Shown here piece after piece: positions 1-2,594 of a DNA stretch of 5,820 bases. The notes under the pieces are model-generated. The model did not search any database. It was not told where the DNA came from and saw only the letters and a list, made by a program, of their open reading frames with translations. The position numbers were made by a program, and so were the translations under genes. Origin of the DNA: a virus (lineage: Duplodnaviria; Heunggongvirae; Uroviricota; Caudoviricetes); IMG/VR virus record IMGVR_UViG_2778261154_000012; one strand, written 5' to 3'. Position 1 is the stretch's first letter. Every line of letters begins with the position of its first letter.

Positions 1-25
1 CTAGTCTAAAAACTAGTATTAAGAC

Positions 26-45
26 TATCACTTATTTAAGTGATA
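26..45. promoter_or_regulatory. Perfect 8-bp inverted repeat TATCACTT-attt-AAGTGATA; candidate operator or protein-binding site
   Basis: Seen directly: 26-33 tatcactt and 38-45 aagtgata are exact reverse complements separated by 4 nt. It lies immediately upstream of the first possible start of the 50..598 ORF. A second short inverted repeat, ctagt-N6-actag, sits at 1-16. Function is inferred. Confidence 0.3.
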
Positions 46-49
46 CTGG

Positions 50-598
50 TTGTCTGGAGATTCAGGGGGCCAGTCTAAGAACTTCATCGACACTCTTGAA
101 AGCTGGCGTGACCAGAAACAGATTATTTCGGTCATCTGTAAAGACGGAATTAAAATTGATGATTCCATTATTACTAGTTTTAAAGCCTCTAAAGATGTTG
201 GTATTTCAAATGGTCTAAGAATCCAGCTAACTTTTCAGGAAATTAACTTTAAAGCTATTGTAGGGCAAACTGATGTCTCAGCAGCTACTGGAAAGACTTC
301 TACCACAAATGATGGTGGCGCTACCAGTAAAAAGAATACAGGGAATACTACAACGACATTAAATCAGCCTATGCTATCGTGCAAAGAATTAATGAATATT
401 AGCGATGTATCCGGTTACGCTCCAGCTATCAGAAATGATATTCTCGATGCTCAGATTAAATGTAATAAGGCTTGGAAGCTGGACTATTCAGACTTAACAG
501 AAGCTGAAAAAACCAACGTCACCAATGCTAATAGTAACGCTGGTCGAGTAGCTTCAAAGCTTAAAAAGTACTCAGTGAACCCTAACAAAAAATACTAA
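50..598 (+). CDS. Hypothetical protein, 182 aa: N-terminal domain, Thr/Asn/Ser/Gly-rich linker, C-terminal domain with two Cys
   Basis: A 549-nt open frame in AT-rich DNA, where stop codons should be frequent, argues for real coding. There is no in-frame ATG until about codon 108; the only upstream start is TTG at 50, with no convincing Shine-Dalgarno and an in-frame TGA at 41-43. The 5' end is therefore unresolved. The stop TAA at 596-598 overlaps the convergent recombinase stop by 2 nt. I recognise no family. Confidence 0.5.
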
Positions 599-2118
599 AT
601 CTCTACTACATCAACATCTATTAAACCCCTCTCAGTGACTTCAGAAAGCGACTGTATAGCCTCTGTAACGTCCTCTGAGGGGTTTTCTGTTATTGGTAAG
701 GTGATTGATTTACTGTTGTGAAAAGTTACTTTACAGCGACGTTTAGCAGTATTTAAAACGACCTCTTTAACAGCACTTTTGATTATCAGTTGTGCTTCAA
801 TCCTTCCCGCCTTTGTAGTCAAGTCACAATCAGACAAACAACCCACATCAATAGATTTAAGGCGTTGTGTCTCCTTCTCGATATCCGCATCAACCTGTGA
901 TAGCTCACCTTTTAACTGCTTTAGTTTGATGGTAATAGCTGACAAATCTTCAATTTCAAGTGATAGCTGTACCAGCTTTTCAATATTGCTTGAGATGTGT
1001 TCACGGTGTAGCTTCAGCGTATCTATGGTATTCGTCGTATCGCTATCAAATCGGTCAAGACGAGATAGTAGGGTAAGTAATGTACCATCGGTTTGCTTAC
1101 GTGACAGCCCTTTAGCACTACAACGGTTTTCATTACGAAGAGGACAACGATAAATCCCGTTTCTTGTATCGCTAAAGCCTGTGATAATCAGAGCATGACC
1201 ACATTCAGAACAACGGATAACCCCTTTAAAGAGATTCACACTCAATGGTTTAGCTGAAGCAGGTTTTCGACCGTGACGAGCATATGATAGTTGTTGAACT
1301 TTGTAGAATGTTGTTTCATCTATAATTGCAGGATAATAACCAGATATCTCCTCACAGCCTTTAGGTGTGAAGTAACCAATTACAGAGCGATTTTTCAGAA
1401 GGTCTTGTACTGAGGTTTGACCAAATGAACCCGCTTTATGTTGGTTAAGCGTCTGGCGACCTTCAGCATTAAGAGTTCTGACAATCTCCCAGATAGACTT
1501 ACCCTCTAACCGTAGCTGAAAGCACCTCTTCACAGTCTCCACTTTATCAGGTATCACAGAGAAGCTTTTACGGTCATCATTAAGCTTAAGCCATGCAGGG
1601 CAACGTTTGGAAACTTTGATACCAGCTTTAGCAGCTTCTTTCTTGGCATCCCATGCAGCTTGTATACGCTCAGACTTCCTCAAACTCTCCTCATGCGCCC
1701 TTTGCATTATCAAAATGCTTTTAATCAGAGATAACGGGTCTTTAAGAGATTCCTTTGTGTAATGTTCACCATCGGACAGGGTGACTACATCTACACCAGA
1801 GCGAAGAATGTTTCTGAGTAGCTCACTTGCTCGGTCTACATCTTGACGTGACAAACGGTCAAGAGATTCTATCAAGAGCGTATCACCAGCTTTAACAAGC
1901 CCTTTCTCGATAGCGGTTAAGAAGTCACCTAAGCCACCTTTCAAGTGCTTACCAGTGAATCCACTCACACCTAAATCACGGAAGGATAAATCTTGGTCAA
2001 GGTAGTACTCAGGATGAGCCTTAAGCCAGTCATTAACCATCTTAGACTGTCTGCGTAGTGAGTCGCCTTTGGCTTGTCGCTCAGAACTGAATCTGATGTA
2101 GCTGATTACACGTTTCAT
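595..2118 (-). CDS. Large serine recombinase (resolvase/invertase-type catalytic domain, recombinase domain, zinc ribbon, coiled-coil)
   Basis: N-terminus [15 protein letters not shown] carries the catalytic-serine motif typical of serine recombinases, and LDRLSR matches the conserved Arg region. Downstream there is a Cys cluster (CSECGH...[11 protein letters not shown]) consistent with the zinc-ribbon domain, then a heptad-like Leu/Glu/Lys-rich stretch consistent with the coiled-coil. Length of 507 aa fits the large serine recombinase class. ATG at 2118..2116 is preceded by GGTGG about 8 nt upstream on the minus strand. Confidence 0.9.
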
Positions 2119-2168
2119 TCTTTACCACCATAAAAACTAATAGCAGTTGGGCTTGTACCAACCCCTAG

Positions 2169-2197
2169 ATTGTATCGCTTTAGGTGGTGTATTTAAA
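2169..2197 (-). promoter_or_regulatory. Candidate sigma70-like promoter for the serine recombinase gene
   Basis: On the minus strand: TTTAAA (plus 2192-2197), a 17-nt spacer, then TACAAT (plus 2169-2174), about 50 nt upstream of the recombinase ATG. This is a hexamer match only. The -35 element lies in the AT-rich junction with the yecE-like fragment. Confidence 0.3.
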
Positions 2198-2594
2198 CGT
2201 GTCTGATGAAAATCACCCGATTAACGCCGCGCTGATGTAAACCGCGATTAAGCGTTTGTTCCTCTTCTCCTTTGGCGAAAAACTGTGGATGGCGGACTTC
2301 CACGCCATAATTAAATTCGCCAGGAAGAGAATCGAGAAAATGCCAAAGCGCAGGCAGCTCCCGTGGGCCGAATGTGGCAGGCAGTTGCAGCCAGTATTGC
2401 CCAATGCGCGGAGCCAACGGTGACATGCGGGTCAAAAATTCAGTCACTAAATCATCGCAATGCCGTAATGCTGCCTGATGCGAAATGGTCGCCGGAAACT
2501 TAAAACAGAAGCGGAAGTCATCTGTGGTCTGCTCACGCCAGCGCAGGACAACCTCGGGTTTCGGCAGGGCGTAAAGCGTGGTGTTGCCCTCCAC
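2193..2594 (-). pseudogene. yecE: Internal fragment of a DUF72-family (YecE-like) gene, truncated at both ends
   Basis: The translation (…CVEGNTTLYALPKPEVVLRWREQTTDDFRFCFKF…LQLPATFGP…) matches my recollection of the DUF72 N-terminal-half motifs (FN.VE.N.TFY..P, DDFRF). It is only 133 codons, whereas DUF72 proteins are roughly twice that. The frame opens at a GTG with no Shine-Dalgarno, and upstream in-frame sequence runs into the integrase 3' end and a stop at 2652-2654. The frame ends at TAA 2193-2195 exactly where composition switches to AT-rich DNA. G+C is clearly higher than the flanks. The yecE symbol is from memory; yecE is a known lambdoid and Stx-phage insertion locus in E. coli. Confidence 0.6.

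Follow-up and report, generated by a model that had tools for sequence, protein, structure and literature searches.

A decayed serine-integrase island in the yecE gene of Escherichia coli, a probable satellite of Felix O1-like phages

The present study deals with a DNA stretch of 5,820 bp (hereafter the window), held in IMG/VR as record IMGVR_UViG_2778261154_000012, which corresponds to an entire draft contig of an Escherichia coli assembly (NJNE01000136.1, GCA_002467185.1) and has insertion sequence (IS) copies at both of its ends. The module on its left side, namely a large serine recombinase gene and the remainder of a phage tail gene next to a piece of the chromosomal gene yecE, is probably the decayed right end of a serine-integrase island that resides in yecE and lives as a satellite of Felix O1-like phages. 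Within this composite reading, the identity of the integrase and the insertion of the module into yecE are held with very high confidence; that the island as a whole is a satellite of Ounavirinae phages, as comparison of sequences suggests, is a view we moderately favour. The labels supplied by PGAP ('phage baseplate protein' and 'recombinase family protein'), together with the '182-aa ORF' (open reading frame) of an earlier note made from the letters of the window alone, mask one coherent mobile element.

The insertion of a foreign module into yecE, already proposed in the earlier note, is borne out by window positions 2209-2614, which are 99% identical to nucleotides 479-74 of yecE in strain K-12. 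The gene breaks at window 2209/2210 (yecE nucleotides 479/478), its reading frame runs on for five codons into the foreign DNA up to a stop at 2193-2195, and genomes without the module align to the window from 2209 rightwards. An unoccupied site, on whose existence the earlier note had made its case depend, is found in the great majority of complete E. coli genomes: a 221-nt attB probe was contiguous, and attB hence unbroken, in 5139 of 5426, and was split into two places in 282. What did not hold was the sharp fall of G+C to about one third that had been seen at the end of the yecE frame. The module has a G+C content of 41% (40.9% over 78-2208), the recombinase gene standing at 42% and the stretch 78-598 at 37%; the yecE piece has 53%, and the step at the junction is gradual in 100-nt windows.

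In order to define the att sites, uninterrupted yecE, the window and both EC12 junctions were aligned, and attL and attR were read from five copies of the element. Within yecE, attB is GGGCGGCTGTCT-AA-AATCACCCGATT; the reconstructed attP, of about 50 bp, forms an imperfect dyad, GTGTATTTAAAC...AA...GTCTAAATACAC, whose outer arms are symmetric at 12 of 13 positions. The corresponding 50-bp sequences are GGTAGTGTATTTAAACGTGTCTAATAAAAATCATCAAGGTCTAAATACACTATGAGG for attP and CATGAACCGGGCGGCTGTCTAAAATCACCCGATTAACGCCG for attB. In the window, attR is composed of a P-arm half-site at 2187-2208, with its outer repeat GTGTATTTAAAC at 2187-2198 (including the -35-like TTTAAA), and of a yecE-derived B' half-site from 2211 to about 2233. 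Since attL and attR of copy L001 share, together with attB, the two bases AA alone (7 bp in the other copies), the crossover is fixed at this dinucleotide. Both the crossover AA (2209-2210) and the P-arm repeat fall inside 2119-2215, precisely the interval in which the earlier note had expected an att site, and the imperfect dyad that it suggested looking for there is visible in the inverted-repeat arms of the reconstructed attP. An inverted-repeat search around the junction itself returned one 8-nt pair (2108-2115 / 2195-2202), which we judged to be a chance occurrence.

The other end of the element and an uninterrupted yecE, likewise named there as things to be sought, were both recovered, attL and attR from full copies and attB from empty-site genomes. 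In all, each of the four att forms was found: attB (the 5139 genomes mentioned above), attL and attR (copies L001 and L004-L007) and attP (metagenome contig L023), and all nine IMG/VR copies retrieved through the integrase are integrated, with a yecE attR flank. By sequence, this att anatomy looks typical of a serine integrase, and as far as the searched literature shows, the yecE att sites are new.

The module protein is a member of the large serine recombinases and the predicted integrase of the island. As the earlier note maintained, it is full-length, with three Pfam domains: Resolvase (PF00239, 7.6e-21, residues 4-164), Recombinase (PF07508, 9.5e-16) and Zn_ribbon_recom (PF13408, 5.1e-07). 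Its translation contains the motif YIRFSSERQ, which fits R-x-S-S/T-x-x-Q and in which S11, by analogy, is likely the nucleophile, as well as the zinc-ribbon cysteines C303, C306, C325 and C333; the sole hint of a coiled-coil is a sub-threshold Seryl_tRNA_N match at residues 328-420. The protein equals in length its E. coli protein cluster of 4181 members. The closest protein in sequenced phages is YbcK-like (36% identity); of the serine integrases with a solved structure, that of A118 is remotely similar, with E=1.4e-4 along 75 residues, and Vibrio recombinases show up only as distant matches (43% identity over about 60% of the protein). The yecE recombinase has its catalytic, recombinase and zinc-ribbon domains in common with the integrases of A118/LI, Bxb1 and phiC31 and with YbcK of prophage DLP12, and it shares with the A118/LI, Bxb1 and phiC31 types the short attP and attB, the imperfect dyads, the 2-bp non-palindromic crossover and the location of the gene beside attP. 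It differs from these phage integrases in that it serves a satellite-sized island and not a phage. The GTDB species-representative genomes yielded two matches only, an E. coli-like fragment of 548 bp and a recombinase from Ruminococcus that is unrelated. The former, a contig assigned to 'Mycobacterium sp. NAZ190054' (L024, NZ_LMVQ01000531.1) with a protein 97% identical to the recombinase N-terminus, is almost certainly E. coli contamination of a Mycobacterium assembly.

Complete copies reveal what the module belongs to. In L001, L005, L006 and L007, and in L004 with an extra IS, the att-bounded unit measures 11.2-12.1 kb (about 11.4 kb) and is flanked on both sides by the halves of yecE. Its left part consists of attL, an optional small resolvase gene, a Dam methylase gene and either an O-like/HTH_36 replication initiator or genes without known function; an optional HNH endonuclease gene, small unknown genes and the genes for a 234-aa protein and a tape measure protein of about 720 aa follow in the middle, and a Dit-like tube initiator gene, the integrase gene on the opposite strand and attR make up the right part. 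When copies L005 and L007 were searched with Pfam, PHROGs and NCBIfam, genes for capsid, portal, terminase, sheath, tube or lysis functions were not detected, and an att-bounded unit with only two recognisable tail genes does not make a complete prophage. What we have is thus not a phage, nor is it an integrative and conjugative element, but a conserved, satellite-like island of about 11.4 kb.

The right end of the island matches 410 of the 5426 complete E. coli genomes, and copies of the element are 85-95% identical to one another. The same layout occurs in contigs of other Enterobacterales, with integrases 45-50% identical; one of these relatives (L017) adjoins a DUF72 gene, and another (L018) ends in yecE-like sequence. 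In a distant relative whose integrase is 45% identical (L019), a DUF4145 gene and AbiJ_NTD4/Abi_C genes lie at 1905-4122, between the integrase and the tape measure gene, an interval that may serve as a cargo slot for anti-phage defence genes.

The connection to Felix O1-like phages came from the tail genes. The plus-strand ORF at 50-598, regarded by the earlier note as a 182-aa cargo gene, turned out to be an artefact: its TTG start codon at position 50 falls within the terminal 77 nt of an IS2 copy, and the ORF is therefore a chimera and not a gene, with only 78-598 as original sequence. It does converge with the recombinase gene as described, the two stop codons sharing 2 nt (TAA at 596-598 and, on the complement, TAG at 595-597). 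Such a layout is not unusual, for in other copies of the element the two genes either overlap by 4 nt at the same place or are separated by 14 nt. The original fragment, whose Pfam Dit_like match is confined to profile positions 62-118, is 66% identical in amino acids to its counterpart in Felixounavirus REP10 and 89% identical in nucleotides over 275 nt, and full-length tube initiators of the element reach 70-76% amino-acid identity to the REP10 gene located just downstream of the tape measure gene. At the nucleotide level the tube initiator gene is a mosaic, with a central 520 nt that are 84-90% identical to the phage gene and ends that diverge. When PDB sequences were searched with a profile of the tube-initiator family, chain A of 9NDY was matched at E=2e-131; this chain is the 'Tube initiator protein (gp018)' from phage Bas63. 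An AlphaFold2 model built from a 24-sequence alignment of the family (mean pLDDT 35) was unusable.

The cryo-EM structure of Bas63, also a Felixounavirus, shows a baseplate hub built from four components, among them the tube initiator gp18 and, in contact with it, a fragment of gp17, the tape measure protein (PMC12609058). The element encodes the same pair in the same order, tape measure gene followed by tube initiator gene. Its tape measure protein is 30% identical over the full length to those of several Ounavirinae genera, and the first 47 aa are 70% identical to the phage in copy L007 (44-53% in other copies). The differences from Bas63 gp17 and gp18 are that the element genes are chromosomal, that they are located on an island without the other approximately 10 baseplate proteins, sheath, tube or head, and that the termini of the element tube initiator diverge from gp18. 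Apart from this pair, tblastn and blastn comparison of all element ORFs with the whole REP10 genome gave no protein match.

Besides the genes, five short non-coding stretches of 23-60 nt match non-coding regions of REP10 at 257-293, 530-707, 8532-8592, 85214-85236 and 85296-85330. On the element they are situated at L005 11609-11749, at element positions 1291-1424 and 6349-6371 of L007, and in the left arms of L001 and L006; the longest perfect match is the 23-mer TATGAGATAGGTTCTATCGAATC, upstream of the tape measure gene of the element. Two of them lie near the ends of the REP10 record, one is a terminator-like hairpin and another holds an inverted repeat. Promoters, operators, terminators or packaging signals common to island and phage are conceivable roles for these matches. 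The G+C content is 39-40% in both the element and Felixounavirus. The shared tail genes, their order and the five non-coding matches, taken together, point to a specific link between the island and this helper lineage.

A search of public metagenome contigs with a degenerate attP pattern yielded one match, L023, a contig of 11,473 bp that contains exactly the predicted attP and in which the integrase end is joined to the opposite (Dam) end of the element. Its two ends map at most 5 bp apart on the element, so that it comprises a full circular permutation; L023 is thus a complete unit-length permutation in an excised or a tandem form. The last ~43 nt of this contig (11431-11473) are Nextera adapter (CTGTCTCTTATACACATCT...), and the meeting of its ends within 5 bp may reflect either an arbitrary assembly break or a preferred physical end. 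A sister element, L042, was recovered from a metagenome as a closed circle: its assembly is 11,871 bp long, its ends overlap by 55 bp and its coverage is 64x. A further contig, L041 (SRR21858476, 11,221 bp), is an integrated yecE copy that terminates 25-31 nt outside attL and attR; such ends are what a k=31 assembly graph gives for a sample in which the occupied site is present side by side with the empty (or excised) one.

As for the copy in the window, its condition can be followed in L032, a 381-kb contig of another assembly that is 100% identical over the whole window. The IS2 at window 1-77, which is 98.7% identical to an IS3-family copy in L004, runs leftwards beyond the window and cuts the tube-initiator gene. 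In L032 the IS2 transposase genes follow beyond it, then the 5' remainder of the interrupted tube-initiator gene, and after this the tape measure gene and a single small gene; about 5-6 bp of target were duplicated upon the IS2 insertion. Farther on, an IS1 copy abuts yecN. IS1 has there deleted attL, together with some 6.4 kb at the left of the element and 211 nt from the 3' piece of yecE. If the genome of the window matches L032, the window copy cannot excise, because attL is deleted. We therefore regard it as probably a decayed, immobile remnant in which the integrase gene and attR are intact and which would be unable to excise as a unit. An IS3-family element has even entered the integrase gene in two further genomes, IS2-like in TUM1881 (L004 20521-23377) and IS1203 in 08-3914 (L031 14522-17358), and IS-mediated decay of the island is therefore recurrent.

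This gives rise to the following scenario for the intact island. The recombinase would join the attP of about 50 bp to attB in yecE, by cleavage and a 180-degree rotation of subunits at the central AA (yecE nucleotides 478-479), leaving attL and attR without long direct repeats. Once integrated, the island would stay in place until a Felix O1-like phage infects the cell, whereupon it would excise, with a directionality factor that may be supplied by the phage, and would replicate from its own initiator. The tape measure and tube-initiator proteins of the island would enter the baseplate hub of the helper, and the island would leave in particles made by the helper, probably at the helper's cost.

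Obviously, other explanations have to be weighed against this one. The change of composition near 2200 might be put down to an assembly chimera, which the earlier note had named as a possible undoing of its own reading, or to an IS-mediated, strain-specific rearrangement instead of a site-specific insertion, and the window, being a whole draft contig bounded by IS copies on both sides, lends itself to that suspicion. However, the junction recurs at 99-100% identity in independent complete genomes and in the 381-kb contig L032, it matches attB-derived sequence to the base, and the matching attL is present in other genomes. With the independent genomes, the attL/attR data and the attB counts at hand, we rejected the chimera reading of the junction, whose probability we consider negligible. 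A weightier possibility, unlikely as it seems to us, is that the module descends from a temperate prophage that has had its head, packaging and lysis genes deleted and now spreads vertically or by generalised recombination. Tail genes beside an integrase at a gene-disrupting site of prophage style are what such a history would leave, yecE is known as a prophage site (PMC3603311), and the window copy is visibly decaying via IS2 and IS1. Even so, no larger version of the element came to light: five chromosomal copies, the metagenome unit and the distant relatives are all 11-12 kb in size with the same gene order, and a unit-length attP form exists, as does the closed sister circle at 64x. In addition, the 85-95% identity among copies, as opposed to 99% for the yecE flank, argues for independent acquisitions. 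The Felix O1-like phages, moreover, have a virulent way of life and REP10 has no annotated integrase, which makes a decayed prophage of their lineage an unlikely origin.

It may also be thought, with slightly less probability still, that the island is mainly a device of anti-phage defence, in which the tail homologues act as dominant-negative decoys against tail and baseplate assembly of Felix O1-like phages and the integrase provides mobility only, for instance by transfer along other routes. The tape measure and the tube initiator are exactly the contacting pair of the Felixounavirus hub, the tube initiator is a mosaic of a conserved centre and divergent ends, the distant relative L019 holds AbiJ/Abi_C genes, and there is a documented precedent for mobile elements that block tail assembly (PMC11364771). 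Defence alone, however, would leave the replication initiator, the phage-like non-coding stretches and the unit-length circles unexplained. The two roles are moreover compatible with each other, since defence and hitch-hiking are combined in known satellites, PLE among them.

Several observations weigh against the satellite reading that we prefer, or against parts of it. The decay of the window's copy is deduced from a second, identical assembly, its own contig stopping at the IS copies. Between six and eight genes of the element are without detectable function, among which a structural or packaging role could be hidden. At 11.4 kb the island equals one-seventh of the 86-kb phage genome, and no capsid-size-redirecting gene was identified in it. 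The tape measure protein shares just 30% identity with the phage protein, and the helper could be an unsampled relative. Compared with all phage records, the replication initiator had no Odn-like counterpart and returned one irrelevant Parageobacillus match, which gives no sign of an anti-satellite nuclease of phages with the same DNA-binding domain; because the initiator has no phage counterpart, the signature of a phage-satellite arms race used by Barth et al. is absent here. Finally, a metagenome contig with attP could also arise from tandem duplication, the attP pattern was absent from IMG/VR, and a circular form tells nothing of what induces excision.

The closest precedent in the same host was provided by Barth et al. 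(2023), who tied 224 putative E. coli satellites to Justusliebigvirus (Inny, Muut, Mt1B1_P17); these carry tape measure and baseplate genes, miss most other tail genes and include a subset with a serine recombinase (PMC10448857). The yecE element resembles these satellites, which are E. coli islands of 10-14 kb with about 40% G+C, devoid of terminase and protease genes, a subset of which has a serine recombinase at a non-tRNA site. It also resembles the Barth satellite located at tRNA-Thr in O104:H4, with its integrase, baseplate gene and tape measure gene and, by the far att site, a small resolvase. In contrast, the satellites of Barth et al. carry capsid and decoration genes and a RepA_N initiator, reside at tRNA-Thr or a lysR-type gene and go with Stephanstirmvirinae. 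BLASTP of the element proteins against one such satellite (L020) found the small resolvase alone to be similar (39% in amino acids), and none of ten accessions checked with the yecE element appears in Table S6 of Barth et al. The yecE element thus has the architecture alone in common with these satellites and cannot be counted among them.

A comparable likeness exists to PLE of Vibrio cholerae, which is also a small AT-rich island of about one-seventh of the genome of a virulent myophage, with a terminal serine recombinase and an initiator of its own. PLE reportedly has no directionality factor of its own and employs a phage protein; in the yecE element, too, no directionality factor was recognised. 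Genes for a tape measure or a tube initiator are not known from PLE. The two islands differ in host, phage and att site, and helper dependence is demonstrated for PLE but deduced for the yecE island. The likeness would be one of logic and function, not of homology or membership. Literature searches on yecE with serine recombinase, on Felix O1-like phages or Ounavirinae with satellite, and on Justusliebigvirus with satellite did not come across a description of the element. It is, in our opinion, an island of the satellite kind that belongs to neither the Barth nor the PLE family.

The yecE island does have sisters of its own. Three contigs (L028, L029 and L030) carry near-identical tail modules with different integrases and targets: in L028 (ERR2138628) a serine recombinase of 547 aa, the element being inserted at the 5' end of wrbA and providing a new N-terminus for WrbA; a tyrosine integrase beside a closely related tube-initiator gene in L029; and a 506-aa serine recombinase just upstream of tonB in L030 (ERR4899318). 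The closed circle L042 likewise encodes a 506-aa recombinase. The serine recombinases of the yecE, wrbA and tonB types are mutually 28-36% identical, and related tube-initiator genes occur in thousands of assemblies. We would put forward, tentatively and at somewhat less than even odds, that the yecE island and its sisters make up a large unnamed family of Enterobacterales satellites which live on Ounavirinae and hijack the baseplate hub with tail proteins of their own. We know of no satellite for which such tail-centred hijacking has yet been demonstrated.

Table 1. Features of the 5,820-bp window and the evidence for each.
Feature	Position	Strand	Evidence
IS2, terminal 77 nt (left inverted-repeat end)	1-77	-	100% match over 78 nt to annotated IS2 end in L003
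Tube-initiator pseudogene, 3' portion (172 codons + stop)	78-598	+	Homology to full 261-aa gene
Large serine recombinase gene, intact, 507 aa	595-2118	-	Pfam domains
Integrase leader with -10-like hexamer and hairpin	2119-2186	-	Promoter/terminator pattern scan
attR	2187-2233	.	Four-way alignment; att sequences of five copies
yecE internal fragment (DUF72 family), nt 74-479 of 819	2209-2614	-	99% over 406 nt to K-12 yecE; Pfam DUF72 1.3e-31
Lambdoid prophage, integrase end (context only, outside the serine-recombinase element)	2615-5730	-	Pfam domains
IS1203/IS629-type IS3-family element end (context only)	5731-5820	.	98.9% over 91 nt to annotated IS1203 copy in L031

With regard to the remaining features of the window (Table 1), the promoter-like hexamers that had been placed at the junction are indeed there: TTTAAA occupies 2197-2192 and TACAAT 2174-2169, both read on the minus strand. 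They score 9/12 and are no more frequent than chance: a promoter scan found 2 such sites in the region, with 4.4 expected from shuffled sequence, and in view of this lack of excess they match the pattern without amounting to evidence that a promoter is present. Between the hexamers and the integrase start codon lies a hairpin that scores terminator-like; its 19 nt at 2145-2163 are a variable insertion, missing at that place in L001 and L005. A hairpin unit of about 22 nt, TAGGGGTTGGTACAAGCCCAACT, is found once per element copy at differing positions, namely ahead of the integrase gene, in the left arm or close to attL (window 2145-2163 on the minus strand, L005 11530-11547, L006 18073-18090, L007 6914-6931 and L015 18154-18171). 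Being absent from the matching place in other copies, it has the look of a very small palindrome that moves. The window gave no matches to Rfam families and none in a tRNA scan.

To the right of the yecE fragment, a lambdoid prophage is joined to yecE nucleotides 73/74 (window 2614/2615), by which the gene is cut into three pieces. The prophage end encodes a tyrosine integrase (2621-3934), an excisionase (3990-4226) and DUF4222, DUF5406 and SPFH proteins, and the IS1203/IS629 end, where the contig terminates, disrupts the SPFH gene. The same prophage end stands beside an otherwise uninterrupted yecE in many genomes, and most copies of the serine-integrase island have no adjoining prophage, so that the two insertions into yecE are independent events. 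That yecE is a site of prophage integration was known before (PMC3603311). The island has in common with the lambdoid yecE prophages, including those of the Stx type, that the same host gene is disrupted; it differs from them in that theirs is a tyrosine integrase of a full-size phage acting at yecE nucleotides 73/74, the island being inserted at 478/479. We also considered the adjacent prophage as a helper and rejected it, most island copies lacking such a neighbour and the two having no genes in common.

The window itself is of modest practical meaning, being a decayed copy bounded by IS elements. The island from which it derives offers a natural Enterobacterial serine integrase with attP and attB resolved to the base and an AA crossover, and at least two more integrases with other targets stand beside it, all of them candidate tools for genome engineering. 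Felix O1-like phages are easy to obtain, common in phage cocktails and used for Salmonella typing, biocontrol and therapy. If the satellite reading is true, the yield of these phages in typing, biocontrol and therapy would probably be lowered by the island, and a second candidate satellite system linked to a virulent phage would exist in E. coli, the main model host. That the island has a tape measure and a tube initiator but lacks head genes altogether suggests that a helper may be exploited or sabotaged by way of its baseplate hub.

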